Assembly (NCBI GenBank): GCA_035278025.1
Contig: DATEJK010000117.1
Location: 11,293-75,292 of the forward strand
DNA from: Terriglobales bacterium
GTDB lineage: Bacteria; Acidobacteriota; Terriglobia; Terriglobales; Acidobacteriaceae
Length of the DNA: 64,000 nucleotides
Direction: 5' to 3'
This document shows positions 2,218 to 63,984 of the stretch, piece after piece. The notes beneath the pieces are model-generated. The model was not told where the DNA came from and made no database searches. It saw only the letters and a list, made by a program, of their open reading frames with translations. The position numbers were made by a program, and so were the translations under genes. The number at the start of each line of letters is the position of its first letter. The first letter of the stretch is position 1.

Positions 2218-2442
2218 CGCATAAACAGGGCATTATACGACCCGGCCGGCGGCTGAAGCTTACGCGGCTGGCCACGCCCCGCCTCCATAAAACGGGCTGC
2301 CGAAGCCCGCAAACTATTCATTCTTCCCTTTCTTCCCCGCTCCTGCAGCCACGCCGGTCACATGCTCGTGTGATGCTGAATCCGCCAGCCCCGCCTTTCA
2401 TGATTCCTGGCCCCCTGTTTGGCGAAAAGGCGAGAGGACAGC

Positions 2443-2478
2443 GCCAAGTTCTCAGTAAAGGCCAAGTTCTCAGTAAAG
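2443..2478. repeat. Perfect tandem duplication of an 18-bp unit GCCAAGTTCTCAGTAAAG
   Basis: Units 2443-2460 and 2461-2478 are identical. They lie in the spacer upstream of the aminotransferase gene on the minus strand. Confidence 0.9.
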
Positions 2479-2544
2479 AAGGTCGGCGGCGCAAAGGACT
2501 CCGGGGGTGTTGCCCTCGGCAGCGGCGCAGATCGTCAGGTGAGA

Positions 2545-3354
2545 TTATTTGAAGACGTTGTTTTCGGGAACGCCGAAATGGGCTGCTTTAGGCGCGCACG
2601 TATCAATGGAGGTTAAGACGATGTTGGCCGGCTCGCCCACGGCCTGCCCCGAAATCACATAGGGGCGGTATTGGTCCCTGGGCGTGTGATTGTCCAGGAA
2701 TTTTTTGATGAAGGGAGAGCAGTTGACCGCAAACGCGGATTTTTCCTCTGTCCACCACACCGCTCTGAATCTGAAGGGTCTTCCCGATTCCGCTACTCCC
2801 GAAACCACGGAATAGGACCCATCGTTGCTGGTCGCGATGGACCTGAACTCGTCCACCTTAAACACGAGCCAGCGGCCTTTCTGGCCTGGAGCAAGGAACT
2901 TGCAGGCCTCCGCCTCACAAGTCCGCTTGACGCGGTAAATGTTGATGGTGACGGGCTGGGTGGATGTGTTCTTGTATTCGACCGAGACTTTGCCGGATAC
3001 AGGCTGGTATTTCCTGGAAGCGCCCAGCGGGGTGGCAATCGAGTAGTGGATGCCGCTGGTCAACTCCGTGGCCTGAACACAATTCGTCGTGCAACGCTGA
3101 GCTTGCACAGCCAGCCACCCAATTTCGACCGGTTCGGTTGACTCAACAGTGATGGTGTACGCTTGTCCTGGTTTCAGGACAACCCCCGATTTGACCGGAA
3201 CATGCATGACTGCTGCGTGAGCCACAGCAGCCCACAAGAGAAGAAACAGCAGCATGGGACAGCGCATGCCGGCATTATATGGCGGGGAAGAAAACCGTTG
3301 AGTCCTTCGAAGGTCGGCCGCCAGGGACAGCGACGAAATGGCTGCGAGGTTCAT
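2545..3354 (-). CDS. Hypothetical secreted protein (beta-rich, several Cys); function unknown
   Basis: 269-aa ORF. ATG at 3354 overlaps the upstream stop as ATGA. An internal start at 3267 would give a classical signal peptide, MRCPMLLFLLLWAAVAHA. I recognise no family. Confidence 0.6.
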   Translation of the reverse strand: MNLAAISSLSLAADLRRTQRFSSPPYNAGMRCPMLLFLLLWAAVAHAAVMHVPVKSGVVLKPGQAYTITVESTEPVEIGWLAVQAQRCTTNCVQATELTSGIHYSIATPLGASRKYQPVSGKVSVEYKNTSTQPVTINIYRVKRTCEAEACKFLAPGQKGRWLVFKVDEFRSIATSNDGSYSVVSGVAESGRPFRFRAVWWTEEKSAFAVNCSPFIKKFLDNHTPRDQYRPYVISGQAVGEPANIVLTSIDTCAPKAAHFGVPENNVFK

Positions 3355-4858: not shown

Positions 4859-5329
4859 ATGCACTATGCACAACCACAACAGGAAGCAGTAGCGGCGCCG
4901 GGAAGACGTCGCTTTCTGGGCATGCTGCTGGGCGGCGGCCTGTTCGCCTCCGCCGTCTCATTTTTCTATCCCGTGCTGCGCTATCTGGTGCCACCGCGTA
5001 TTACGGACATGGGCGGCGACACCGTTGTGGCGGGCAAGGTGGGGGAACTGCGGCCCAACAGCGGCAAGATTTTCCGCTTTGGCAGCCGCCCCGGCCTTCT
5101 GATGCTGGGCGCCGACGGCCAGTACCGCGCGCTTTCCGCCACCTGCACCCACCTGAGCTGCACGGTGCAGTACCGCAGCGACCTGCGTGAGGTGTGGTGC
5201 GCCTGCCATAACGGCATGTACGACCTGTCCGGCCGCAACCTGTCCGGTCCTCCGCCCCGGCCGCTGGAGCAGTATGACGTGCACGTCCGCGGCGATGAGA
5301 TCATCGTCAGCCGCCGGCGGGAGGCGTAG
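4859..5329 (+). CDS. Rieske [2Fe-2S] subunit of a cytochrome bc/b6f-type complex, TAT-exported
   Basis: Cluster boxes CTHLSC and CACHNG. Twin-arginine signal GRRRFLGMLLGGG. Start moved from the track ORF (4760) to ATG 4859. Confidence 0.9.
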   Translation: MHYAQPQQEAVAAPGRRRFLGMLLGGGLFASAVSFFYPVLRYLVPPRITDMGGDTVVAGKVGELRPNSGKIFRFGSRPGLLMLGADGQYRALSATCTHLSCTVQYRSDLREVWCACHNGMYDLSGRNLSGPPPRPLEQYDVHVRGDEIIVSRRREA

Positions 5330-6409
5330 ATGGCGCCTTTGGTCCGCGTCCGCAACTGGCTGGATGAACGCTTCGGATGGGAGGAGTTGCTGGCTCCCCT
5401 GCGCCACAAGACCGTGCCCATCCACCGCTACTCCTACTGGTATTTTCTCGGCGGCATCACCCTCTTCCTTTTTGGGGTGCAGGTTTGCACCGGCATTCTG
5501 CTTTTGCTCTATTACCGCCCCAGCGCCAATGAAGCCTTTGAGAGCGTGCAGTACATCATGACCCAGGTGCAATTCGGATGGCTGGTGCGCTCGGTGCACT
5601 CCTGGGCCGCCAACCTGATGATCTTCACCGCCTTCCTGCACATGTTCAGCGTCCTGTTCCTGCGCGCCTACCGCAAGCCGCGCGAACTGACCTGGGTGAG
5701 CGGCATGCTGCTGCTGTTCCTGGCCATGGGCTTCGGCTTCAGCGGCTACCTGCTGCCCTGGAACACGCTGGCCTTCTTCGCCACCAAGGTGGGCACCGAC
5801 ATCGCCGGGCAGGTGCCCTTCGTCGGCCACCGCCTCATGGTCTTCCTGCGCGGCGGCGATGAAGTGACGGGGGCCACACTCAGCCGCTTTTTCGGCTTTC
5901 ACGTGGCCGTGCTGCCCGGGCTGATCACCTTGCTCATCTCCCTCCACCTGCTCCTGGTGCAGCGCTTCGGGATCAGCGTGCCGGCGCGCATAGAGCCGGA
6001 ATGGAAGACCATGCCCCGGGAAAAGCGCGAGATGCGCTTCTTCCCCAACTTCCTGCTCCGCGAACTGATGGCCTGGTACATCGCGCTGGGAGTTCTGGGC
6101 GCGCTGGCGGCGTTCTCGCCCTGGGGACTGGGAACCAAAGCCGATCCTTTTGCCCCCGCGCCCGCCGGCATCAAGCCGGAGTGGTACTTCCTGTTCATGT
6201 TCCAGACTTTGAAACTCATTCCCGCCAAGCTGGGCATGCTGGATGGCGAGGTGGTGGGCATCCTCACTTTCTCTCTCGCCGGGCTCATCTGGCTGCTGGT
6301 GCCTTTCCTCGATGGCACTAAGCGGACACAGCGCCTGGTTACAGGAGCGGCCATGTTCGTGGTGGCCTATATGGGAGCCATGACGGCATACGGTTATGTG
6401 GCGAAATAA
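5330..6409 (+). CDS. Cytochrome b (fused b6 + subunit IV type)
   Basis: 359 aa. Heme ligand pairs H-x13-H ([16 protein letters not shown]) and H-x14-H ([17 protein letters not shown]). Qo motif PEWYFL. No Cys at the b6 heme-ci position (YWYFLGGIT). Confidence 0.92.
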
Positions 6410-18912: not shown

Positions 18913-19158
18913 GGTTTCAAGGTTTCGCAGGTTTCAAAGTCAAAAGCATTCACCGCCGAGACGCCGAGCCCGCCGAGTTTTTCAAGGTTATTCTTTTTCC
19001 AGGTCTGGCCTTCCTTGAAAGCTGTGAAGCCTTGGAATTTTGAAACCCGTCAGTTGTTCATCAATGAAACCTGATTTAAATTTCTCCGCTGCCTTTGCGT
19101 CTCGGCGGTGGAAGGGTGTGATTTTTTCTTGAAACTTGCGAAACTGGAAATTTGAAAC
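18913..19158. repeat. About 245-bp nested inverted-repeat element filling the spacer between two convergent genes
   Basis: Inner arms CACCGCCGAGACGC (18951-18964) and GCGTCTCGGCGGTG (19097-19110) are perfect complements, 14 of 14. Outer arms GGTTTCAAGGTTTCGCAGGTTTCAAAG (18913-18939) face CTTGAAACTTGCGAAACTGGAAATTTGAAAC (19128-19158) and use GTTTCAA/TTGAAAC words. Confidence 0.75.
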
Positions 19159-19165
19159 TAGCTTC

Positions 19166-20155
19166 TTATGCCGTCAACTCCGTCGCTTCCTGCTCCGTGT
19201 ATGCGCAGACTCGCGCCCACACCTCCCGCGGGCATTCCACCCGGAACAGCGGCACCTGGGCCGTGGCCAAGCGGGTTTTGTGCGGCTGCTCCCCGGTCAT
19301 GTAGTCGCAGCTCAGCCCTTCCTCCAGGCTCTGGCGTGTTGCCTCGAACAGCAGCACCATTCCCGGCGAATAGTGGGACCAGGAGTGGTCGTAATACGTG
19401 GTATAGAAGCGGCACGTTTCCCCATCACGAAACGTGACCAGAGCGGCCACCAGGGTTGCGCCCTGGGTGAGCGTGTACACATCGCAGGGCGCGGGACCGC
19501 TTTGCGCCGCCGCCACCAGAAAATTGATGCGCGCCGCGTCCCGAAACAGGTTGGCGGGAACCTGAGCCGCCTTGAGCTGGTAAATCCGCCGCAGCAGGTC
19601 CGGCGCCGGCGGCTCGCGGCGGAATTCCACCCCCTGGCGAAGGAGTTTGCGCCAGCGGCTGCCGATGCGCGCATGCGCTGCCGCTAATTGCTCCGCGGAA
19701 GTGTGGCTGGAGAGCACGCAGGGAGCGCTGACAAAGGGCTGCGGCGAAAAATCCTCCCAGGCGCGGCGGCGCTCCTGGCCGCGCAGGGCGGCAAAGAAAA
19801 GCGGCAGTTTGAGCGCCGCCACTTCCTCCCAGGCCTGGCGCAACACGGCCGGATCGCCTTCGAAGAGCACATCGCGATAATCGAACAGCGCTTCGCCCAG
19901 CAGAGTGAAACCGTGGTCGGCAATGGCGCCGGGAATCAGCGCCGCGCCCGCGTCGCTTTCCACCAGAACCACGTAAGGCTCTTCGCGGGCGGCAAACAGC
20001 CGTGCCGCCAGCCGGTTCCAGAAAAAGCTTTGAAATAGGGTTGGGACCGGGTGAGCGCCGTAAAGGTGATCCCAGACCGGGCGCAAGCGGTCTATTTCGG
20101 CGGGCGAGCGCGCGACAACGCTGCGAAGCAAACGCTGGCCTCCTCGGGCGTGCAA
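19166..20155 (-). CDS. GNAT-superfamily acetyltransferase of the CelD/BioF2-like type
   Basis: 329 aa. The C-terminal segment SHYSPGMVLLFEATRQSLEEGLSCDYMTGEQPHKTRLAT resembles CelD-like GNAT proteins. Recognised by eye only. Confidence 0.6.
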   Translation of the reverse strand: MHARGGQRLLRSVVARSPAEIDRLRPVWDHLYGAHPVPTLFQSFFWNRLAARLFAAREEPYVVLVESDAGAALIPGAIADHGFTLLGEALFDYRDVLFEGDPAVLRQAWEEVAALKLPLFFAALRGQERRRAWEDFSPQPFVSAPCVLSSHTSAEQLAAAHARIGSRWRKLLRQGVEFRREPPAPDLLRRIYQLKAAQVPANLFRDAARINFLVAAAQSGPAPCDVYTLTQGATLVAALVTFRDGETCRFYTTYYDHSWSHYSPGMVLLFEATRQSLEEGLSCDYMTGEQPHKTRLATAQVPLFRVECPREVWARVCAYTEQEATELTA

Positions 20156-20312
20156 TGGTTAGACGCAGGCTACATGCGGCTGGATGTTTTGCCCGGCCGG
20201 AATTTCCCTGTCCCAGGGCCGAAGGGCCGGCCTGGCGGGCGGCCAGGTGCGACCATTCGCCGGAGCGGGGATACCGTGGAATGCATATCACGACCGTCGG
20301 TGACAACACGCG

Positions 20313-20342
20313 TTGACCTGGGTTGGCGGGGGGCAGTATGCT
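20313..20342 (+). promoter_or_regulatory. Candidate sigma-70-type promoter of the FTR1 operon
   Basis: TTGACC (20313-20318), an 18-nt spacer, then TATGCT (20337-20342). The palindromic operator begins 7 nt downstream. Confidence 0.35.
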
Positions 20343-20349
20343 TGAGAAG

Positions 20350-20372
20350 TTGAAAATGAATTTCATTTTCAA
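20350..20372. promoter_or_regulatory. Perfect 11-1-11 palindrome TTGAAAATGAA-T-TTCATTTTCAA: Fur-box-like iron operator
   Basis: An AT-rich perfect palindrome in a GC-rich genome, 20 nt upstream of the FTR1 ATG. Its central 19 nt match the classical Fur box GATAATGATAATCATTATC at 14 of 19 positions (my count). A near-identical copy lies at 61799-61821 before feoA. Confidence 0.6.
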
Positions 20373-20392
20373 TTTGCTCGAGCCCGCTTGCC

Positions 20393-21640
20393 ATGATTGA
20401 CGCTCTTATTATCACCCTGCGCGAAGGCGTGGAGGCCGCGCTTATTGTCGGCATCACCCTCGCCTACCTGGCCAAGATCAGCCGCACTGACCTGCGCCGC
20501 GCCGTATACGCCGCCTTGGCCGCCGCTTTCCTGGGCAGCATTGGCGCCGCCCTCATCGTTTCCCGCCTCGACCTGAACCAGGACATCCTGGAAGGCTGGG
20601 TCATGCTGGCCGCCGCTTTCTTCGTGGTCACCATGGTGGTCTTCATGATGAAGACCGCGCGCAGCATGAAGGGCAAAATCGAGGGCAAGGTCGGCTTTCT
20701 GGCCGACCGCGGTTCTCAACTTGGCCTTTTCCTCTTCGTCTTCCTGATGGTGCTGCGCGAGGGCGTGGAGACGGTGCTCATTCTTTCCGCCGTCTCCCTG
20801 AATTCCAGCGCGCTCATGAATTTTCTGGGCACGCTGCTGGGAATCGCGCTGGCGATTGTGTTCGGGGTGATGTTCGTCAAAGGCTCGGTGCGCGTCAATT
20901 TGCGCAAGTTCTTTCGCATCACCAGCGTGATCCTCATATTTGTGGCGGTGCAGCTGGTGGTTTCCGGCCTGCACGAGCTCTCGGAGAACGGCGTGCTTCC
21001 CTCCAGCAAGCGGGAGATGGCGCTGATCGGGCCCATTGTGACCAATGAGGTGTTCTTCTTTGTGACCATCCTGGCCCTGGCTGCTCTGATGGTGCTGTTC
21101 GAGATGAAGCGCCGGCAGCCCGCGCCCGAGCCGGCCTCCCCCGCGGAGCGCCGCAAAGCCCTGTGGAGCGCCCGCCGCGAGCGCCTGTGGATGGTTTCCG
21201 TTTATGCCAGCTGCTTTCTGTTCATCGTGCTGGTGACGGCGGAATTCGTTTACACCAAGAGCGTGAGCGCGCTCTCCCCCGCCACACCGGTTGCCTTCCG
21301 CAATGGGCGACTGGGCATCCCCCTCTCCCAAGTCTCGGACGGCGAGCTCCATCGCTACGTCGCCACGGAACATGGTCTCCCGGTGCGCTTCCTGCTGTAT
21401 CGCAAGCCCGACGGCAGCGTGGCCACGGTGTTTGACGCCTGCGAAATCTGCGGCGGGGTGGGCTATTACAAAACCAGCCAGGGCCTGGTCTGCAAGAACT
21501 GCGGCGCTCCCATCAACGGCGCGACCGTGGGTCATCCCGGAGGCTGCAATCCGGTTCCCCTGCAGGCCGCAGTGAGCGGCGGGCAGGTGCTGATAACGGA
21601 GGCGGAAGTGGCGGCGGGGAGCCGCTACTTCCAGAAGTAG
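20393..21640 (+). CDS. FTR1/EfeU-family iron permease fused to a DUF2318-like (CxxC...CxxC) membrane domain
   Basis: 415 aa. Two REGxE motifs (LREGVEAAL, LREGVETVL) in the polytopic N-terminal part. A further TM segment is followed by FDACEICGGVGYYKTSQGLVCKNCGAPI, typical of DUF2318 proteins found next to ftr1-p19 loci. Confidence 0.85.
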   Translation: MIDALIITLREGVEAALIVGITLAYLAKISRTDLRRAVYAALAAAFLGSIGAALIVSRLDLNQDILEGWVMLAAAFFVVTMVVFMMKTARSMKGKIEGKVGFLADRGSQLGLFLFVFLMVLREGVETVLILSAVSLNSSALMNFLGTLLGIALAIVFGVMFVKGSVRVNLRKFFRITSVILIFVAVQLVVSGLHELSENGVLPSSKREMALIGPIVTNEVFFFVTILALAALMVLFEMKRRQPAPEPASPAERRKALWSARRERLWMVSVYASCFLFIVLVTAEFVYTKSVSALSPATPVAFRNGRLGIPLSQVSDGELHRYVATEHGLPVRFLLYRKPDGSVATVFDACEICGGVGYYKTSQGLVCKNCGAPINGATVGHPGGCNPVPLQAAVSGGQVLITEAEVAAGSRYFQK

Positions 21641-21643
21641 CCC

Positions 21644-22909
21644 ATGTTTCCCCGCCTGGTTTTTGAATCTTTCCGGCGTCAGCGTCGGCGCAAGCTGCTG
21701 GCCGGGGTGGCTATCGCCCTGGGCGTGGCCGTCGCCACCGCCATGATCGCGGTAGCCACCAACATCGGCGACAAGATTAATCAGGAGCTGCGCAGCTACG
21801 GCGCTAACCTGCTCATCACGCCCCAGGCGGATACCCTGGATGTAGAAATCGGCGGCGTGGACCTGAAGCCGCCCAGCGACGGCGCTTTCCTGAAGGAAGC
21901 CGATCTGCCCCGCATTAAGGGCACGTTCTGGAAAAATAACATTGTCGGCTTTGCTCCCATGCTGCCGGTGCGGGCCAGCATCGTCACCGGCACTCAAACC
22001 GAAGCTGCGGAAGTTGTCGGCACCTGGTTCGCTAAACAACTGGCCTATGATCGCGAATCCTTTGTCACCGGCGTGCGCACCACGAACCCGTGGTGGAGAG
22101 TGAGTGGCGGCTGGCCCGCCGATGATTCCTCGGACGTACTTTTGGGCAGGGAGTTGGCGGCAAAATTGGGACGGCGGCCGGGCGACAGCATTGCAATCAA
22201 CGGCCAGCCTCACCGTGTGGCCGGCATCCTGACTACGGGGGGCGCGGAGGAGGAGCAGATTGTCGCGCCGCTGCAAGTAGCGCAGCAGATTTTGGGGAGG
22301 CCGGGCGCGGTGCGCCGCGTGTTCGTCAGCGCGCTGACCAAGCCGGAAGACGCGCTCGCTTTGCGCGATCCCAAGACCATGTCGCCGGCCATGTTGGAGC
22401 GCTGGTCGTGCTCGCCTTACGTGCAGTCCATCGCCTATGTGCTGCAGAAGGCGATTCCCCACTCCCGTGTGGAGCCCATACGCCAGGTGGCCAGCACGGA
22501 AGGCACGGTGCTGGAGCGGATTCAGGGCCTGATGCTGCTGATCACGCTGGCTGCGCTGCTGGCTTCGGCGCTGGCTGTTTCCGCCGCGATGGCCACCGCC
22601 ATCTTCGAGCGCCGCAACGAAATCGGCCTGATGAAAGCGCTGGGCGCCGCCAATTTTACGGTTGCCTCCGTGTTCTTCGCCGAAGCTGCTCTGCTGGCGG
22701 TGCTGGGCGGAATCGTCGGATTTTTCGGCGGCGGCCTGCTGGCGCGGGAGATCGGTCGCAGCATCTTCAATTCGCAAATCAGCGTGCAACCGGTGCTCTT
22801 CCCCGTGATCCTGGGTATTGCGGCGCTGGTTACTTTCGCCGGCAGCGCCGTCGCCATTCGCCGCGCGGTGCGCTTCGATCCCGTGTACGCCCTGAAGGCT
22901 GAAGCATGA
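21644..22909 (+). CDS. ABC transporter permease, MacB/FtsX type
   Basis: 421 aa. N-terminal TM, large periplasmic domain, C-terminal FtsX module (FERRNEIGLMKALGA...). Starts 3 nt after the FTR1 fusion gene. Confidence 0.85.
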   Translation: MFPRLVFESFRRQRRRKLLAGVAIALGVAVATAMIAVATNIGDKINQELRSYGANLLITPQADTLDVEIGGVDLKPPSDGAFLKEADLPRIKGTFWKNNIVGFAPMLPVRASIVTGTQTEAAEVVGTWFAKQLAYDRESFVTGVRTTNPWWRVSGGWPADDSSDVLLGRELAAKLGRRPGDSIAINGQPHRVAGILTTGGAEEEQIVAPLQVAQQILGRPGAVRRVFVSALTKPEDALALRDPKTMSPAMLERWSCSPYVQSIAYVLQKAIPHSRVEPIRQVASTEGTVLERIQGLMLLITLAALLASALAVSAAMATAIFERRNEIGLMKALGAANFTVASVFFAEAALLAVLGGIVGFFGGGLLAREIGRSIFNSQISVQPVLFPVILGIAALVTFAGSAVAIRRAVRFDPVYALKAEA

Positions 22910-24036
22910 GCGCCATGCCTTCAATTCGCCGCTCGGGCAAGCGCGGGATGTTCCTGCGCATGCTGCTGCGCGCCTCGCTGGTCCGCCGTGGCCGGGCTCT
23001 CTCCGCCCTTCTGGCCGTGGTGGTGGCAGCCGCGGTCGCCACCGCTATGCTGAACCTGTACGTGGAAGTGCAAGCCAAGCTGCGCACGGAGTTCCGCAAG
23101 TACGGCGCCAACATTGTGGTGGTCGCCAAGCAGGGCCAGTCTCTTCCCGCGGACACGTTGTCCCGGGTGCAGGCGGCGCTGGCCGGGCGCGGCATCGCCG
23201 TGCCCTTTGCTTACGTGGTGGCCAGCACGGCGGACGGATCGCCGATTGTCGCTGCCGGAACAGACATGGAAAGCGTGCGCCGCCTGGATTCCTGGTGGAG
23301 CGTCTCCGCTTGGCCGCATGGCAGCGGCGAAGCCCTGTTGGGCTCGCGCGCTGCAACCGTAGTCAGCCTGCAGGGCCAGCCCTTCGATTTGAGTTTCCAC
23401 GGCCGCTCCATTCATCTGACCGCCGCCGGCACCCTCAGCACCGGCGCCGCCGAGGACAGCCGGGTTTATCTGCCACTTGCCGACTTTGCCGCCTGGACGG
23501 GCGTTCAGCCCTCGACCATAGAAATCGCCGCCAACGGCTCGGCGGCGCAAGTCGCGTCCATTCTGAAGCAGGTGGCCGCCGCGGTGCCCGGCGCCGAGGT
23601 CCGCCCGGTGCGTCAGATCATGGAAGCCGAGGGCCGGGTGTTGGGCAAAACTCGCTCGACTTTGCTGGCCGCCGCCGCCCTCATCATCCTGACCGCCGCC
23701 CTGTGCGTGCTGGCCACTCTGACCGCCTGGGTGCTGGACCGCCGCCGCGACTTCGCCATTATGAAAGCGTTGGGCGCCTCGGAGCGCCTGATCAGCGGCT
23801 TCTTCGCCGCCGAGGCCGCCTCCATCGGGGCGATGGGGGCTCTGTTGGGCTACGCCATCGGCATTGGGGCCGCCGCCTGGATCGGCCGCGCCAACTTTCA
23901 GGCATCAATTTCGCCACGTCTCAGCGTCCTTCCCAGCGTTTTCCTGGGCAGCATTGTGGTAGCCTTGCTCTCCGCCACCTTGCCCATGGCCCTGCTGCGG
24001 AGGGTGCAGCCGGCCACGATCCTTCGAGGGGAATAA
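22906..24036 (+). CDS. ABC transporter permease, MacB/FtsX type (second copy)
   Basis: 376 aa with the same architecture (DRRRDFAIMKALGAS...). Start overlaps the preceding stop by 4 nt. Confidence 0.8.
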   Translation: MSAMPSIRRSGKRGMFLRMLLRASLVRRGRALSALLAVVVAAAVATAMLNLYVEVQAKLRTEFRKYGANIVVVAKQGQSLPADTLSRVQAALAGRGIAVPFAYVVASTADGSPIVAAGTDMESVRRLDSWWSVSAWPHGSGEALLGSRAATVVSLQGQPFDLSFHGRSIHLTAAGTLSTGAAEDSRVYLPLADFAAWTGVQPSTIEIAANGSAAQVASILKQVAAAVPGAEVRPVRQIMEAEGRVLGKTRSTLLAAAALIILTAALCVLATLTAWVLDRRRDFAIMKALGASERLISGFFAAEAASIGAMGALLGYAIGIGAAAWIGRANFQASISPRLSVLPSVFLGSIVVALLSATLPMALLRRVQPATILRGE

Positions 24037-24039
24037 GCC

Positions 24040-25263
24040 ATGATCCGACTGGAACACGTCAGCAAGCTCTACCCGGCCAAGGCCGAGGAGAACGGCGGCG
24101 TCATTCGTGCGCTGGACGACGTGTCTCTCACGGTGATGCCCGGGGAGTGGCTGGCCATCATGGGCCCCTCCGGCTCCGGCAAATCCACCATGGTCAACCT
24201 GATCGGCTGCCTCGACCGGCCCAGCAGCGGCAACGTCTGGCTGGCCGGCCAGAATGTGGCCGGGCTGAGCGCCGCCGAACTGACCCGGGTGCGCGCGGAG
24301 AAAATCGGTTTCATCTTTCAGCAGTTCCATTTGATTCCGTACCTCACCGCGCTGGAGAACGTCATGCTGGCGCAGTACTTCCACAGCATGACCGACGAGC
24401 AGGAGGCGCTAGAGGCATTGGAGCGGGTGGGGCTGAAGGAGCGCGCCCAGCACCTGCCGGCGCATTTATCGGGCGGCGAGCAGCAACGGGTGTGCATTGC
24501 CCGCGCCCTTATCAACGACCCCAAGATCGTGCTGGCCGACGAGCCCACCGGCAACCTGGACGCGCAGAACGAGGAGATCGTACTGCGCCTGCTGCGCGAG
24601 CTGCACCAGCAAGGCCGCACCATCATCATGGTCACCCACGACCCGCTGGTGGCCCGCCTGGCCGACCGCCGCGTGGAACTGCACCACGGCAGGATTGCCA
24701 CCGAAGAAGTCTTCGCCATGTCTGACCAGGAGCAGTTCGACGAAGTGCTGGAAGAGATTTGGGTCATCGAAGAACACGGCGAGCCCGCCGAACTGGGCAG
24801 CATGGACGTGCACGGCGGCGTGCCCGTGAGCATCGCTGTTGAAAAGATGGTGGAGCTGGGCCTGGTAACCACGCGCCCGCACCCCTCGCAGCCGCACGCG
24901 CACAAGGCCGTCATCAATCCCTGCCACGACGCGCTGGGCCACATTTCGCAGCGCGTGGCCGACGGCGACCTGATGATCGAGTTCACACCCCAGGGCCGCC
25001 AGCGCGCCGCTGACGTCATCCGCCGCCACCGCCTGGCCGAGCGCCTCTTCACCGAGAGCCTGGGCATGGACGACCCGGCGGAAGTGGAAGAGCAGGCCTG
25101 CAGGTTCGAGCACATCCTATCGCCCGAAGCCACCGACCGCATCTGCGCCTTCCTGGGCCATCCCCGCGCCTGCCCCCACGGCGCGCCCATCCCTCCCGGC
25201 GCCTGCTGCACCTTGCGCGAAGTGGAGAGCGCCGACGTGCGGGTAGCGCGCAAAACCAAGTAG
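24040..25263 (+). CDS. ABC transporter ATP-binding protein fused to a C-terminal DtxR/IdeR/MntR-family metalloregulator module
   Basis: Residues 1-225 carry Walker A GPSGSGKST, signature LSGGEQQR, Walker B IVLADEPT and H-loop VTHD. Residues about 229-407 carry LEEIWVIEEHGE, RRHRLAERLF, CRFEHILSPEA and CPHGAPIP, which are characteristic of DtxR-family wHTH plus metal-binding/dimerisation domains. Confidence 0.85.
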   Translation: MIRLEHVSKLYPAKAEENGGVIRALDDVSLTVMPGEWLAIMGPSGSGKSTMVNLIGCLDRPSSGNVWLAGQNVAGLSAAELTRVRAEKIGFIFQQFHLIPYLTALENVMLAQYFHSMTDEQEALEALERVGLKERAQHLPAHLSGGEQQRVCIARALINDPKIVLADEPTGNLDAQNEEIVLRLLRELHQQGRTIIMVTHDPLVARLADRRVELHHGRIATEEVFAMSDQEQFDEVLEEIWVIEEHGEPAELGSMDVHGGVPVSIAVEKMVELGLVTTRPHPSQPHAHKAVINPCHDALGHISQRVADGDLMIEFTPQGRQRAADVIRRHRLAERLFTESLGMDDPAEVEEQACRFEHILSPEATDRICAFLGHPRACPHGAPIPPGACCTLREVESADVRVARKTK

Positions 25264-25274
25264 TCCAGCTAACA

Positions 25275-25419
25275 CCAAAACCACAGGGGACGCGGAGGTT
25301 TTCGGGAATTCATGCCTTTGTGTCTTTGATTTGACGCAGCACCGTCATGGATCTCGACGGCTTGAGCTAGTTCCAAATTTCTTAAACCTCAGCGTCCTTT
25401 GGGTCCTCTGTGGTTTTGG
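25275..25419. repeat. About 145-bp inverted-repeat element between the iron ABC operon and the ars operon
   Basis: Termini CCAAAACCACAGGGGA (25275-25290) and TCCTCTGTGGTTTTGG (25404-25419) are complementary at 15 of 16 positions. Inner CGCGGAGGTTT / AAACCTCAGCG arms. CCACAGAGGA is the same word as in the 676-1017 element. Confidence 0.7.
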
Positions 25420-25480
25420 CTTGGCTGGACGACCCCCCTTCACAGGTGACGCGCATCACGATCTTTCGTGACCGCCAACA

Positions 25481-25506
25481 CATATGCTTATGCATATTTA
25501 TATGCT
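25481..25506. promoter_or_regulatory. Candidate ArsR operator/promoter: three ATATGC/GCATAT hexamers
   Basis: ATATGC (25482-25487), inverted GCATAT (25492-25497) and ATATGC (25500-25505) form the only AT-rich patch directly upstream of the arsR ATG at 25518. Confidence 0.3.
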
Positions 25507-25517
25507 AAGCTAACGGC

Positions 25518-25952
25518 ATGAAAGCAAGCTCAACCCCGGTGGCGCAGCAGCACTTCTTCCGTGCCCTGGCTGACCGTACCCGCTTGCGCCTGCTCAACCT
25601 GATGAGGGAGAAGGAAGTCTGTGTCTGCTACTTCGTGGCCGTGCTGAAGCTGAGCCAGCCCAAGATCTCGCGCCACTTGGCGTATCTACGGCGGGCGGGA
25701 ATCGTAGGCGCGCGCCGTCAGGGCAAGTGGATGCACTACCGTCTACTGGCTCCGTCCGATCCGCGCGCCGCACGCATTCTGCAATGCACGCTGGCATGGC
25801 TGCGGCAGGACGCGGAGATGCGCAAGGACCAGGCTCAACTGGTGCGCGCCTGCTGCCGCCGGCAAGCCTTCGTGCAGTTGCAGGCCGCTCCCCTGCCCGC
25901 GCCCGTTCCTGCTTTAACGCCCGCCACCCTCGGGGAAAGGGCACAGCCATGA
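25518..25952 (+). CDS. arsR: ArsR/SmtB-family metalloregulator
   Basis: 144 aa. HTH region ELCVC-like (EVCVCYFVAVLKLSQPKISRHLAYLRRAGIV). Stop overlaps the acr3 start (ATGA). Confidence 0.9.
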   Translation: MKASSTPVAQQHFFRALADRTRLRLLNLMREKEVCVCYFVAVLKLSQPKISRHLAYLRRAGIVGARRQGKWMHYRLLAPSDPRAARILQCTLAWLRQDAEMRKDQAQLVRACCRRQAFVQLQAAPLPAPVPALTPATLGERAQP

Positions 25953-27073
25953 CGACGATCGCCAATCAAGGGTCCCCGCCGTGCACCACCAAACGTCTCA
26001 ACGTTTTTGAACGTTATCTGACGCTCTGGGTGGGCTTATGCATGCTCGCCGGGCTGGCGGTAGGCAAATGGATGCCGGCCTCGGTCAGCCTGCTGCGCTC
26101 CCTGGAGTTTGGCCGCGGCAGCCAGGTCAACATTCCCATAGCCGTGCTCATCTGGCTGATGATCATTCCCATGATGATGAAGGTGGACTTCGCCTCCATT
26201 CGCAACGTAGGCGAGCGGCCGCGCGGCCTGCTGGTCACGTTATTCGTCAATTGGCTGGTGAAGCCCTTTTCCATGGCGCTGATCGCCTGGTTGTTTTTCC
26301 GTCACGTGTTCAGCGCCTGGATAGCTCCTGCCCAAGCCGACCAGTACATCGCTGGAGCCATTATTCTGGCGGCGGCGCCCTGCACCGCCATGGTGTTCGT
26401 GTGGAGCCACCTGACCGATGGCGATCCCGCCTATACCCTGGTTCAGGTCTCGCTCAACGATCTGATCATGCTGTTCCTGTTCGCGCCCATCGTGCGCTTC
26501 CTGGTCAGCGGCGCATCCTCGCTGCACGTGCCTTTCAGCGTGCTGCTGTATTCGGTAACCGCGTTTATTGTTATTCCCCTGGCGGCGGGATCGGCGCTGC
26601 GCTACTGGTTCATTCGCCGCCGCGGGCGGGAGTGGTTTGAGCGCACCCTGTTACCCCGATTTGCACCAGTTACCATTGCCGCCCTGCTGGCCACCCTGGT
26701 TTGTATCTTTGCCTTCCAGGCCGACAACATCACCGGGCGCTACTTCCATGTGCTGCTCATCGCCGTGCCCATCCTGCTGCAGGTGTATTTCAATTCCGGG
26801 CTGGCCTATGGCCTGATGCGCCTGTTCCGGGTGCAGCACTCAATCGCGGCGCCGGGCGCGTTGATCGGGGCCAGCAATTTCTTCGAGTTGGCGGTCGCCA
26901 CCTCGATTGCCCTCTTCGGAGCCGGCTCCGGCGCCGCATTGGCCACGGTGGTGGGCGTCCTGGTGGAGGTGCCGGTCATGCTCTCCGTATGCAATGTGTG
27001 TAACCGAACCCGCCATTGGTTTTCCTGGGAAAGCATGGCCTCGCTGCCTTCTCTCCAGGCCGCCGACGATTGA
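25949..27073 (+). CDS. acr3: ACR3-family arsenite efflux permease
   Basis: Start moved to ATG 25949 (MTTIANQG...). FERYLTLWV and the polytopic profile are typical of ACR3. The 74 codons upstream in the track ORF overlap arsR and are not coding. Confidence 0.92.
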   Translation: MTTIANQGSPPCTTKRLNVFERYLTLWVGLCMLAGLAVGKWMPASVSLLRSLEFGRGSQVNIPIAVLIWLMIIPMMMKVDFASIRNVGERPRGLLVTLFVNWLVKPFSMALIAWLFFRHVFSAWIAPAQADQYIAGAIILAAAPCTAMVFVWSHLTDGDPAYTLVQVSLNDLIMLFLFAPIVRFLVSGASSLHVPFSVLLYSVTAFIVIPLAAGSALRYWFIRRRGREWFERTLLPRFAPVTIAALLATLVCIFAFQADNITGRYFHVLLIAVPILLQVYFNSGLAYGLMRLFRVQHSIAAPGALIGASNFFELAVATSIALFGAGSGAALATVVGVLVEVPVMLSVCNVCNRTRHWFSWESMASLPSLQAADD

Positions 27074-61798: not shown

Positions 61799-61821
61799 TT
61801 GAAAATGATTTTCAATTTCAA
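61799..61821. promoter_or_regulatory. Second copy of the Fur-box-like operator (TTGAAAATGATTTTCAATTTCAA), overlapping the feoA start codon
   Basis: Its core TTGAAAAT-G-ATTTTCAA (61799-61815) is a perfect 8-1-8 palindrome. It matches the 20350-20372 box at 21 of 23 positions. A GATAAT hexamer lies at 61786-61791. Confidence 0.55.
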
Positions 61822-62095
61822 AAAGACGGCCCTCGCCCTTCCTCCCTGCCGCCTGGCCGAGCTGGCTCCCGGGCAGACCGCCGTCATCGCCGACCTGGCC
61901 CTGCCGCCGGCCGCCGCCGAGGCCCTCATGGACCTCGGTCTAGTGGCCGGATCGCGTGTGCTGGCGGTGCGCCGCGCCCCCGGCGGCGATCCCGTGGTTT
62001 ACCGCGTGGATGACGCCGAGATCGCCCTCCGCCGCGAGACAACACGCCACATTTCCATTCTGCCGGTTGAGGAAGCGGCCGAGGTCTGCCCATGA
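61805..62095 (+). CDS. feoA: FeoA-family protein
   Basis: LAELAPGQTAVIADL...LMDLGLVAGSRVLAVRRAPGGDPVVYRVDDAEIALRRE is the FeoA SH3-like pattern. Start ATG 61805, with TTG alternatives at 61796 and 61799. Stop overlaps the feoB start. Confidence 0.85.
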   Translation: MIFNFKKTALALPPCRLAELAPGQTAVIADLALPPAAAEALMDLGLVAGSRVLAVRRAPGGDPVVYRVDDAEIALRRETTRHISILPVEEAAEVCP

Positions 62096-63984
62096 CCACA
62101 CTCACTGCCATCGAACCGGCCCCCGCGGTCCGCTCCGCCACTGGAGCGGGAAAAACTATTCGTGTTCTCGCCCTGGTCGGTCCGCCCAACAGCGGCAAAT
62201 CCACTTTATTCAATAACCTGACCGGGCTGCGGCAGAAAGTTGCCAACTTTCCCGGGGTGACGGTGGAGCAGCGTGCCGGGCGCATGCGCGGGACGAACGG
62301 CGAAACGTTCACCGTGCTCGACTTACCCGGAATCCACAGCCTTTCCCCCCACTCGGAAGACGAGCGGGTTGCTGCCGACGTTCTTCACGGCCGCATGCCG
62401 GGCACGCCCCAACCGGACGCCATTGTCCTGATTCTTGATGCCACCCATCTGAACCGCCACCTGGTGCTGGCGGCGCGAGTGATCGCTCTGGGCCTGCCCA
62501 CCCTAGTTCTGCTGAATATGGCCGATTCATTGCGTCAGCAGGATGGCGATGTGGACCTGGTGGCGCTTGCCGGGCAATTGGGCACACCCATCGCACTGAT
62601 CAGCGCGGCGCGGGGGGAAGGTTTGTCTACGGTGCGGAATTTTGTCGGTTCGGACGGCTGTCCACCCGCCCCGGCGGAGCTGCCGGTGTTGCAGGATGTA
62701 CGTCATTGCCGGGAGTGGGCGGTGCGCGTGGCCAGCCGCGCTTCCTATCGCCGGCCGTTGCCGCCGGCATGGTCGCAGCGACTGGACTCCATTTTCCTGC
62801 ACCGTTATTGGGGACCGGCCATTTTTTTGGGCGTCGTAGTTGCCGCCTTCCAGCTTATCTTCCGCGTCGGCCAGCCGCTTTCGGATGCGTTGCAAAGCTT
62901 GCTGCTGGGCGCGGGGCAGCCGCTGGCCGCGCACCTTCCCGCAGGCATGGCGCGCTCATTGCTGATGGACGGCGCCTGGAAGGGCATGACTTCGGTCCTG
63001 GTCTTTCTGCCGCAGATTCTGCTGTTGTTCCTGCTGATCGGCATGCTTGAGGACTCCGGCTACCTGGCGCGTGCCGCCGTCATCACCGACCGCAGCATGG
63101 CGAAGCTGGGACTGAATGGCAAAGCCTTCATTCCCCTGCTCTCGGCCTACGCCTGCGCCGTGCCTGCCATCATGGCCACGCGCACCATCGAGAACAAACG
63201 CGACCGCATGGCTACCATCCTGATCGCGCCGCTGATGACCTGCTCGGCCCGCCTGCCGGTTTACACCATGATTATTGCCGCCTTTGTTGCCGACCGCCCG
63301 CTGGCCGGCATCTTTCTGGGAACGCGGGCGGCGGCCATGCTCGGTCTTTATGTGGTGGGTTTTCTTGCCGCCGTCGCCACCGCCCGGCTATTGAAATCCT
63401 CCGTGCTCAAATCGCACAGCAGCCCCTTTGTGATGGAGTTGCCGACCTACCGCTGGCCCACGCTGCGCTCGCTGGGCCTGCGGCTGGCGGACCGCTCCTG
63501 GGCCTTTGCCTCGCGTGTGGGAACGGTGGTGCTGGCGGTTTCCCTCGGTTTAGCCCTGCTCATAAACCTGCCAGTCCATTCCGGACGCACGTCGCTCGAA
63601 GACAGTTTGCTGGCCAGCGTAGGACAAAAAATTGAGCCGGCCATCTCACCCCTGGGGTTCAACTGGAAGATTGGCGTGGGGCTGGTCACTTCCATCGCCG
63701 CCCGGGAAGTGATCGTGGGTACGCTGGGCATGCTCTACGGTATGGATTCGGGCACGCACGCCATGACCCTGCAAACCGCCCTGCACACCGACCTTACGCC
63801 CGGCGGCGCGGTGGCTCTACTGCTCTTTTTCGCTTTTGCCCTGCAATGCACCTCCACCCTGGCGGTGGTGCGCCGGGAAACCAACAGCTGGAAATGGCCG
63901 CTGCTGCAGTTCGCCTACATGGCCGCCCTGGCTTATGGGTCGGCTCTGATTGCCAATCAACTCATCCAGCACCTGCTTGTCTAA
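62092..63984 (+). CDS. feoB: Ferrous iron transporter FeoB
   Basis: 630 aa. N-terminal G-domain (GPPNSGKSTLFN, DLPG, NMAD) followed by a polytopic membrane domain. Confidence 0.95.
   Translation: MTTLTAIEPAPAVRSATGAGKTIRVLALVGPPNSGKSTLFNNLTGLRQKVANFPGVTVEQRAGRMRGTNGETFTVLDLPGIHSLSPHSEDERVAADVLHGRMPGTPQPDAIVLILDATHLNRHLVLAARVIALGLPTLVLLNMADSLRQQDGDVDLVALAGQLGTPIALISAARGEGLSTVRNFVGSDGCPPAPAELPVLQDVRHCREWAVRVASRASYRRPLPPAWSQRLDSIFLHRYWGPAIFLGVVVAAFQLIFRVGQPLSDALQSLLLGAGQPLAAHLPAGMARSLLMDGAWKGMTSVLVFLPQILLLFLLIGMLEDSGYLARAAVITDRSMAKLGLNGKAFIPLLSAYACAVPAIMATRTIENKRDRMATILIAPLMTCSARLPVYTMIIAAFVADRPLAGIFLGTRAAAMLGLYVVGFLAAVATARLLKSSVLKSHSSPFVMELPTYRWPTLRSLGLRLADRSWAFASRVGTVVLAVSLGLALLINLPVHSGRTSLEDSLLASVGQKIEPAISPLGFNWKIGVGLVTSIAAREVIVGTLGMLYGMDSGTHAMTLQTALHTDLTPGGAVALLLFFAFALQCTSTLAVVRRETNSWKWPLLQFAYMAALAYGSALIANQLIQHLLV

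Follow-up and report, generated by a model that had tools for sequence, protein, structure and literature searches.

Why should the ATPase subunit of an iron transporter end in the sensor module of a metalloregulator? The question is raised by a 64-kb stretch of Terriglobales DNA (hereafter the window, to which all plain coordinates refer), in which a single open reading frame (ORF) at 24040-25263 of the forward strand, 407 aa long and with no internal stops, encodes an ATP-binding cassette (ABC) nucleotide-binding domain (NBD) of the MacB/LolD type followed by a two-domain module of the DtxR family. An earlier reading of these letters, the original prediction, had drawn attention to region 24724-25263, the 3′ part of this ORF, and had proposed either that the module gates the ATPase in response to cytoplasmic Fe or Mn or that it tethers a DNA-binding repressor to the transporter. 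Of the two, gating appears to fit the comparative evidence better. The explanation we favor, to which we assign a probability of roughly 45%, is that the tail could act in cis as a sensor of cytoplasmic Fe(II) that gates the ATPase, while a Fur-like protein would control transcription.

The domain layout came out largely as predicted, in one continuous frame that runs from the NBD into the tail. Every motif quoted for the ATPase half was recovered, namely GPSGSGKST (residues 42-50), LSGGEQQR (143-150), IVLADEPT (163-170) and VTHD (198-201); Walker A, the Q-loop, the ABC signature, Walker B and the H-switch are all in place, and the catalytic motifs are invariant in 62 homologs. The Pfam model ABC_tran matches residues 25-170 (E = 1.4e-35), and among the NCBIfam models the NBD is closest to MacB (3.4e-68), LolD (5.4e-64) and FtsE, all under the equivalog cut-offs. 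In the tail we located LEEIWVIEEHGE (237-248), RPHPSQPHAHKAVINPCHDALGH (279-301), RRHRLAERLF (328-337), CRFEHILSPEA (354-364) and CPHGAPIP (378-385), the second of these being the His/Pro/Cys-rich insertion that had been assigned to the winged helix-turn-helix (wHTH) domain. Pfam Fe_dep_repr_C (PF02742) matches residues 316-385 (E = 2.3e-28), while Fe_dep_repress (PF01325), the model of the N-terminal DNA-binding wHTH of DtxR, found no match on the 407-aa protein even at E ≤ 1; two of the three models proposed for this protein are therefore represented. The NCBIfam alignment of the tail is likewise restricted to DtxR positions 57-134.

Is there then a wHTH at all? Combined into one profile, 101 tails could be aligned with residues 12-135 of IdeR/DtxR structures (E = 1e-28), a span that takes in helix 1, the recognition helix and the wing, with IdeR 12-64 making up the wHTH part. 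An AlphaFold2 (AF2) model of the tail, built on the tail-family alignment, reached a mean predicted local distance difference test score (pLDDT) of 87.8 and a predicted template modeling score (pTM) of 0.83, and its best PDB matches in Foldseek are two-domain IdeR/DtxR chains (E = 4e-8; template modeling score by target 0.73-0.82). Because the profile aligns to IdeR/DtxR and the model superposes on them, the wHTH is, in the predicted structure, present as a fold. Across the family, PF02742 is matched by 101 of 101 members and PF01325, weakly, by three (E ≤ 0.1). The assignment of the tail to the DtxR family is thus borne out by both the PF02742 match and the profile; its description as complete holds for the wHTH fold and the dimerization domain, but not for an SH3/FeoA-like third domain, nor for a wHTH that is too diverged for PF01325. 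No Pfam match to such a third domain was found, and the protein ends 17 variable residues past the CC motif (residues 391-407 have a mean major-residue frequency of 0.30, against about 0.9 elsewhere).

A fusion could also be the product of an assembly or frameshift error that joins separate ATPase and DtxR-like genes, or a decaying pseudo-fusion. There is an in-frame Met at the junction, and the databases hold many entries of 91-212 aa with PF02742 only, which resemble free regulators. We measured the breadth of the family by protein searches and a metagenome scan; a single-sequence scan of genome contigs gave relatives at 94-98% identity only. The identical 407-aa protein, with the same neighbors, is found in three independent assemblies (two from ENA, one from JGI), and at least 120 full-length clusters of 395-413 aa, 75-96% identical and labeled by NCBI as [quoted passage not shown], carry both PF00005 and PF02742; they derive from many projects and from contigs of up to 2.4 Mb. 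Eighty metagenome loci were retrieved via the tail at 60-72% identity, and in all 77 that contain the NBD the two parts share one stop-free frame, the other three ending at a contig edge. More distant fusions, with tail identities of 40-55%, include the proteins P0138 (401 aa) and P0175 (369 aa, from Ca. Polarisedimenticolia) and further loci from Ca. Acidiferrales, Terriglobia and Bryobacteraceae. With the distant clades represented by P0138 and locus L019, P0175 and L020, L022 and L023, the fusion is conserved across Acidobacteriota.

The apparent free regulators fared poorly when they were examined at the DNA level. Six-frame translation led us to reject the "stand-alone" homologs P0004, P0016, P0432, P0454 and P0465 (182, 206, 208, 132 and 134 aa) as a split-gene form: loci L001, L002 and L024 come from long-read assemblies in which frameshifts run through the whole locus, whereas in L022 and L023 the fused ORF is unbroken and the gene call, "metal-dependent transcriptional regulator", covers no more than its last 132-134 aa. 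Every stand-alone case examined in this way proved to be fused, and among those on long contigs we found no true split form. Because the junction is supported by three assemblies, at least 120 fused clusters and 77 of 77 in-frame loci, we regard it as genuine. Conservation is strong over both halves as well, and an artefact, the doubt that had been attached to the prediction, seems to us barely credible.

Several observations on gene calling and binning bear on how such proteins appear in databases. In many cases the gene called by PGAP or IMG is limited to the last 91-134 aa of the fused ORF (for example, positions 7001-7399 of L022 and 7001-7405 of L023); its name is either "metal-dependent transcriptional regulator" or "DtxR family Mn-dependent transcriptional regulator", and the gene tables consulted list no gene for the NBD part. 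Locus L017 (JBLMXE010000513.1, "Chlamydiota bacterium MAG264") holds the start of a tail 97% identical to that of the window, plus a promoter box of the type found there (type A, described below); it is almost certainly a mis-binned Terriglobales contig with no link to the chlamydial YtgCR protein discussed later. Protein P0193 (428 aa) joins transketolase domains to Fe_dep_repr_C and FeoA, and is probably a chimeric gene call or assembly.

We then asked what the tail has kept of a metal sensor. Residues H330, E334, C354, E357 and H358 correspond to H79, E83, C102, E105 and H106 of DtxR and are invariant; M10 and H98 of DtxR are replaced by the invariant E235 and E350, and D234, also invariant, maps to DtxR E9. 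Judged by this alignment, with its ligands kept or conservatively replaced, the tail is a plausible metal sensor. To these sites the family adds a C369-x8-C378-x10-C389-C390 signature plus H374 and H380, at least 90% conserved across the tail family and absent from every relative in the PDB (solved DtxR-family structures). The wing, moreover, carries an insertion of about 30 aa in which P280, H281, H286, H288, N293, C295 and H296 are invariant in the Terriglobales clade. The insertion is confined to that clade, being absent from the P0138, P0140, P0175, L022 and L023 types, and is therefore not essential to the core role of the fusion; over it the pLDDT of the AF2 tail model falls to 56-72. 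The helix-2 region (24781-24816, residues 248-259) shows highly conserved E245, H246, E248, E251, E256 and H258, and these acidic and His residues could, together with the His/Cys motif of the wing, form a further metal-binding surface not described before.

The closest non-fused relatives of the tail (L025, positions 5001-5675; L027, positions 2421-3080) have a diverged wHTH, a Fe_dep_repr_C domain with CPHG...CC, and a FeoA domain. Both sit directly downstream of feoB, beside a separate canonical regulator with PF01325 and PF02742, and may be FeoA-type partners of FeoB with an iron sensor rather than transcription factors. The presence of CPHG...CC relatives in feoB operons suggests that this subfamily specializes in attaching to iron-transporter components.

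The genomic setting of the fusion is that of iron uptake. Pfam matches on all four ORFs uphold its description as the last gene of an FTR1 locus: it is the fourth and final gene of an operon, equivalent to fetD, with a divergent GNAT acetyltransferase gene and arsR/SBF genes as neighbors (Table 1). In the first protein of the operon FTR1 covers residues 2-200 (E = 1.5e-35) and the FtrD-like domain residues 314-413 (E = 7.5e-29). Two FtsX genes consistently precede the fusion in related loci, and so does the FTR1-FtrD gene wherever the contig extends far enough, as the proposed survey of FTR1/DUF2318 neighbors was meant to establish; the contigs of L019, L022, L023 and L024 are long enough and show the same operon, and the short P0175 contig (L020) shows the preceding FtsX gene only. 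FTR1 and the DUF2318/FtrD-like domain form one protein of 415-421 aa in the window and in all related loci.

Table 1. Features of the FTR1 operon, the ATPase-DtxR fusion gene and the associated promoter elements in the window.
Feature	Position	Strand	Basis or remark
Sigma-70-like promoter of the operon, TTGACC-18-TATGCT	20313..20342	+	sole promoter-like site in 20150-20420
AT-rich palindrome GTTGAAAATGAATTTCATTTTCAAT, two overlapping 7-1-7 inverted repeats, candidate Fur-family-like operator	20349..20373	.	pattern search
FTR1 iron permease fused to FtrD-like/DUF2318 domain (FetM + FetA equivalents)	20393..21640	+	Pfam
MacB_PCD/FtsX permease 1, FetB-like	21644..22909	+	Pfam MacB_PCD and FtsX
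MacB_PCD/FtsX permease 2, FetC-like	22906..24036	+	Pfam FtsX and MacB_PCD
NBD, MacB/LolD/FtsE type, residues 1-220, catalytic motifs intact	24040..24699	+	Pfam ABC_tran, NCBIfam
Linker ATEEVFAMSD, short and conserved, residues 221-230, in-frame Met227	24700..24729	+	
DtxR-type winged-helix domain, acidic, diverged, residues 231-316	24730..24987	+	tail profile, AF2, Foldseek
His/Cys-rich wing insertion, residues 279-310	24874..24969	+	invariant columns
Metal-binding/dimerization domain, residues 317-390	24988..25209	+	Pfam Fe_dep_repr_C, DtxR/IdeR alignment
Variable C-terminal tail, residues 391-407, plus stop codon	25210..25263	+	major-residue frequency
Second copy of type A box, TGAAAATGATTTTCAATTTCA, at start of feoA-feoB	61800..61820	.	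pattern search

This arrangement recalls the Fet cluster of Campylobacter jejuni and uropathogenic E. coli (FetMP-FetABCDEF), in which FetBCD is needed at low iron and has a role stated to be unknown (PMC10783030, PMC6083913), and which is thought to depend on redox chemistry (PMC10783030). The two share, in the same order, an FTR1 permease, a DUF2318 protein, two FtsX-type permeases and an ABC ATPase. They differ in that no P19 (FetP) and no thioredoxin (FetE/F) genes are found in the four-gene operon, and in that FTR1 and DUF2318 lie in one protein here and in separate FetM and FetA proteins in Campylobacter; FetD, for its part, is described only as an ATPase, with no sensor domain mentioned (PMC10783030, PMC6083913). 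In this operon the Fet system takes a streamlined, acidobacterial form.

If the tail were a working repressor, the most obvious target would be the operon's own promoter, and the original prediction had put forward the palindrome at 20350-20372 for an electrophoretic mobility shift assay. This palindrome (20349..20373), to whose pattern 0 matches would be expected by chance, stands just downstream of the -10 element and is conserved at the same promoter position in close and more distant loci, in every operon examined; TTGAC-N17/18-TATCCT-like elements precede FTR1 in related loci. Two types of box can be told apart. The type A box of the window (TTGAAAATGAATTTCATTTTCAA) consists of two 7-1-7 inverted repeats that overlap at an offset of 6 bp, and two overlapping 7-1-7 repeats are the classical architecture of a Fur box (PMC11353095). 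Type B (AGTTGCAACTCNGTTGCA; for example AGTTGCAACTCAGTTGCA) is a single 7-1-7 repeat, with half-sites TGCAAnT as against the TGAAAnT of type A at the same promoter position, and is found upstream of FTR1 in L002, L019, L022, L023, L024, L033, L052, L103 and L108. On the strength of these sequences, the two box types would imply two Fur-family specificities or an evolving regulator. In L019 and L024 an additional GGACC-N5-GGTCC palindrome abuts the -35 element.

The type A box also has a second copy in the window, at the start of feoA-feoB, genes that Pfam identified at 61805-63984 (FeoA E = 8.7e-16), so that it is the mark of an iron regulon, not an operator reserved for the fusion operon. The in-frame feoA ATG (61805) falls inside this box, which suggests that the feoA leader is very short or absent. 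A further argument comes from the recognition helix. Terriglobales fusions with the same helix, LPVS[IL]A[VI]EKM, are preceded by type A in most loci and by type B in L002, L033, L052, L103 and L108, and type B is common to clades with very different helices (ARVLSRM, SVAQELTS and SATLTRM); as far as these alignments go, box type does not co-vary with the fused recognition helix. Given its Fur-like 7-1-7 architecture, the copy at feoAB and this lack of co-variation, we rejected the palindrome as the operator of the fused domain, at least as the leading reading; it is probably not the site that the fusion would bind.

The wHTH itself points the same way. In the clade of the window, the segment that starts with helix 2 and runs to the wing has a net charge of -3 to -7, against an estimated value of about +1 for DtxR, IdeR and MntR. 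Acidic residues stand in for the arginines of helix 2, and the position of the base-contacting Q43 is I, L or M. The domain looks repurposed, and together these features lean against DNA binding, at least in the clade of the window. We also considered an internal start at Met227, which would release a free regulator. Four codons upstream, the codon for E223 is GAA in 51 and GAG in 5 sequences, against a background of 1007:913 in the same ORFs (p = 1.6e-9, with counts that ignore kinship); GAG at this position would create AGGAGG, a Shine-Dalgarno sequence, and where Leu replaces Met227 the ratio turns to GAG 7:4, again with kinship ignored. The avoidance of a Shine-Dalgarno sequence where the ATG is present argues against a separately translated regulator, and we judge such a start to be unlikely. 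As for a free regulator elsewhere, tblastn against the 64-kb window, too small a part of the genome to be informative, found no other gene for Fur, DtxR or MntR.

How, then, might the fusion work? We start from what was observed, that is, the architecture, its conservation and operon linkage, the conserved ligands, the fold, and Fur-like boxes that do not co-vary with the helix; from these we infer which metal is sensed, that its effect is inhibitory, and that DNA binding has been lost. In the mechanism we propose, the fused ATPase, as the FetD equivalent of a MacB/LolCDE-type module, would work with the FTR1-DUF2318 iron permease. Because an ABC transporter has two NBDs, two tails would lie side by side, pre-positioned to form a DtxR-type dimer beneath the NBD dimer. 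Rising cytoplasmic Fe(II) would fill the E235/C354/E357/H358 and H330/E334/E350 sites, upon which the sensor dimer would close and constrain the ATPase dimer, slowing or stopping the ATP cycle, and FTR1-dependent iron uptake would be shut down within seconds as a form of substrate feedback (trans-inhibition). Transcription of the operon would be controlled separately, by a Fur-family protein on the 7-1-7 box of the promoter. The wHTH would have been kept since the primary site draws one of its ligands from helix 1, which is also involved when metal closes the domains, the surface of the wHTH being perhaps re-used for protein contacts or extra metal binding.

A broader version can be stated more tentatively, as a possibility that we would not yet favor. 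The wHTH and dimerization core of DtxR may have been recruited to brake a type VII (MacB-like) ABC ATPase allosterically, under the control of metal, the CPHG...CC subfamily with FeoA in feoB operons may serve transporter components in general as a "plug-in iron sensor", and the conserved Cys4/His site may be an additional, undescribed metal or Fe-S center.

Some of our observations weigh against gating. The full-length AF2 model (pLDDT 62.5, pTM 0.47) is too poor for contacts between the sensor and the NBD to be read from it; the metal that is sensed might instead be Mn, Zn or some other ion; and the extra Cys4/His and His-rich sites are left unexplained. Within the clade the wHTH is conserved at 0.82-0.90 against 0.91 for the NBD, and such near-NBD conservation of a retained wHTH would also fit DNA binding. 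The deeper clades (L023 and P0140 types) keep several Arg residues in a wHTH that is not acidic, and the argument from co-variation uses related, phylogenetically non-independent sequences. Finally, the sole characterized fusion of DtxR to an ABC subunit is a DNA-binding repressor: in YtgC-YtgR (CT069) of Chlamydia trachomatis, a DtxR-like domain on an ABC permease is cleaved off and, with Fe(II), binds and represses the ytg promoter (PMC5599777).

This precedent makes it necessary to consider the module as an Fe-dependent, DNA-binding repressor, either tethered to the membrane as a pre-formed dimer or released by proteolysis, which would repress the FTR1 operon and perhaps feoAB, possibly in addition to a gating role. 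Such a protein would account for a complete wHTH and dimerization fold retained under purifying selection, for the basic wHTH of the deeper clades and for the palindromic candidate operator at every promoter examined, and YtgCR resembles the fusion in bearing a ligand-carrying DtxR module at the C-terminus of a metal-related ABC transporter subunit encoded in the transporter operon. The palindromes, however, are of the Fur type, as set out above, and the wHTH in the clade of the window is strongly acidic, has lost the helix-2 Arg residues and Q43, and goes unmatched by PF01325. Nor does the linker look like a floppy, cleavable tether: it is short (about 10 aa) and conserved, with V224, F225 and M227 each at 90% or more. 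The NBD is, moreover, joined to the N-terminus of helix 1, the end that we take to adjoin DNA in DtxR-DNA structures. Shine-Dalgarno avoidance indicates that the tail is not translated separately, with which cleavage remains compatible. The two proteins also differ in their partners and phyla, since in Chlamydia the module is attached to the membrane permease of a TroABCD-type importer, and in Acidobacteriota to a soluble protein of the cytoplasm, the ATPase of the MacB/FtsX-type module that belongs to an FTR1 system. Assuming the usual stoichiometry of two NBDs, each transporter here should carry two copies, so a dimer could form in place, and whereas YtgR is cleaved off and binds DNA, the present module, seen through its sequence, has an acidic, diverged wHTH. 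On balance we consider a repressor of the YtgR kind, the strongest rival to gating, unlikely, though it deserves to be kept in mind.

The metal-binding residues in excess of the DtxR set suggest yet another function, in metal hand-off, buffering or redox sensing. The tail would accept Fe(II) emerging from the permease and relay it, or, in a variant, an Fe-S or Zn center in the tail would report the redox state to the ATPase, with the DtxR sites, the C369/C378/C389/C390 cluster with H374 and H380, and H281, H286, H288, C295 and H296 of the wing as the features involved. Four extra Cys and two extra His, conserved at the level given above and shared with no solved DtxR-family protein, speak for this, as do the invariant His/Cys motif in the clade-specific insertion and the supposed redox dependence of a Fet system whose FetBCD has no stated role (PMC10783030). 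Yet the tail retains all the classical regulatory ligands of DtxR, which speaks for a sensor and not for a trafficking protein, the wing insertion is limited to one clade, and neither Pfam nor NCBIfam revealed homology to known chaperones or Fe-S scaffolds. We therefore hold hand-off and its redox variant, taken together, to be improbable.

Gating of the ATPase by the fused sensor would, for its part, have close parallels in logic. MalK is among the ABC ATPases with a C-terminal regulatory domain. In the MetNI and ModBC transporters, C-terminal ligand-binding domains mediate trans-inhibition (work cited in PMC10710835). By analogy with MetN (C2/NIL), ModC (TOBE) and MalK, the fusion would place an extra dimerizing, ligand-binding domain after the NBD, with a ligand that is the substrate or related to it, and the fast feedback on the ATP cycle that we propose would follow the same logic. 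The fold differs, being a DtxR two-domain fold according to Foldseek instead of ACT/NIL, TOBE or the MalK regulatory domain, and the ABC module is of the MacB/LolD type, which is no classical importer. Compared with DtxR, IdeR and MntR, the tail shares the wHTH and dimerization fold and the five ligands equivalent to H79, E83, C102, E105 and H106; it differs in not being a free protein, in having no SH3 domain, in the change of M10 and H98 to Glu, and in its C-x8-C-x10-CC/His signature, its wing insertion and an acidic wHTH missed by PF01325.

The original prediction had further stated that no case was known in which a DtxR-type sensor plays such a role. Indeed, in the literature searched we found no description of an ABC ATPase-DtxR fusion, and DtxR goes unmentioned in a review on how transporters are regulated, but the related permease-DtxR fusion YtgC-YtgR had been overlooked. 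This precedent lowers the categorical novelty of the ATPase-DtxR fusion, which is a variation on two themes already known: ABC ATPases with a regulatory domain, and ABC transporter subunits with a DtxR module attached.

Two elements adjoin the fusion gene. At 25260-25433, beginning at its stop codon, lies an element of about 175 nt with long terminal inverted repeats, which as RNA is predicted to form a single extended hairpin (-80.5 kcal/mol, z = -7.0, with 0 of 200 shuffles as stable). It has no Rfam match and no second copy in the window, and may be a large terminator or an insertion resembling a miniature inverted-repeat transposable element or a repetitive extragenic palindrome; an Rfam search over 19000-27000 gave no matches. 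Further on, an AT-rich palindrome, CATATGCTTATGCATATTTATATG, occupies 25481-25504, just upstream of arsR (25518-25952), and is probably an ArsR operator. The arsR gene is followed by an SBF/ACR3-like permease and a low-molecular-weight phosphatase, making up an arsenic-resistance cluster.

Post-translational control of bacterial iron uptake is poorly documented in comparison with transcriptional control by Fur and DtxR. If our reading is true, a sensor wired to the ATPase of the transporter would be a clear case of it, as well as the first metal-dependent trans-inhibition module with a DtxR fold. The fusion is common in Acidobacteriota, a phylum dominant in soils for which genetic models are few, and calling only its C-terminal part inflates the number of transcription factors and hides the real architecture. 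FTR1/P19 systems are important in Campylobacter, uropathogenic E. coli and other bacteria, and the fusion would give the first functional clue to the signal that the FetBCD module of these systems answers, together with a starting point for its biochemistry: a fused iron sensor says that the activity of a FetBCD-type module must match cytoplasmic iron.

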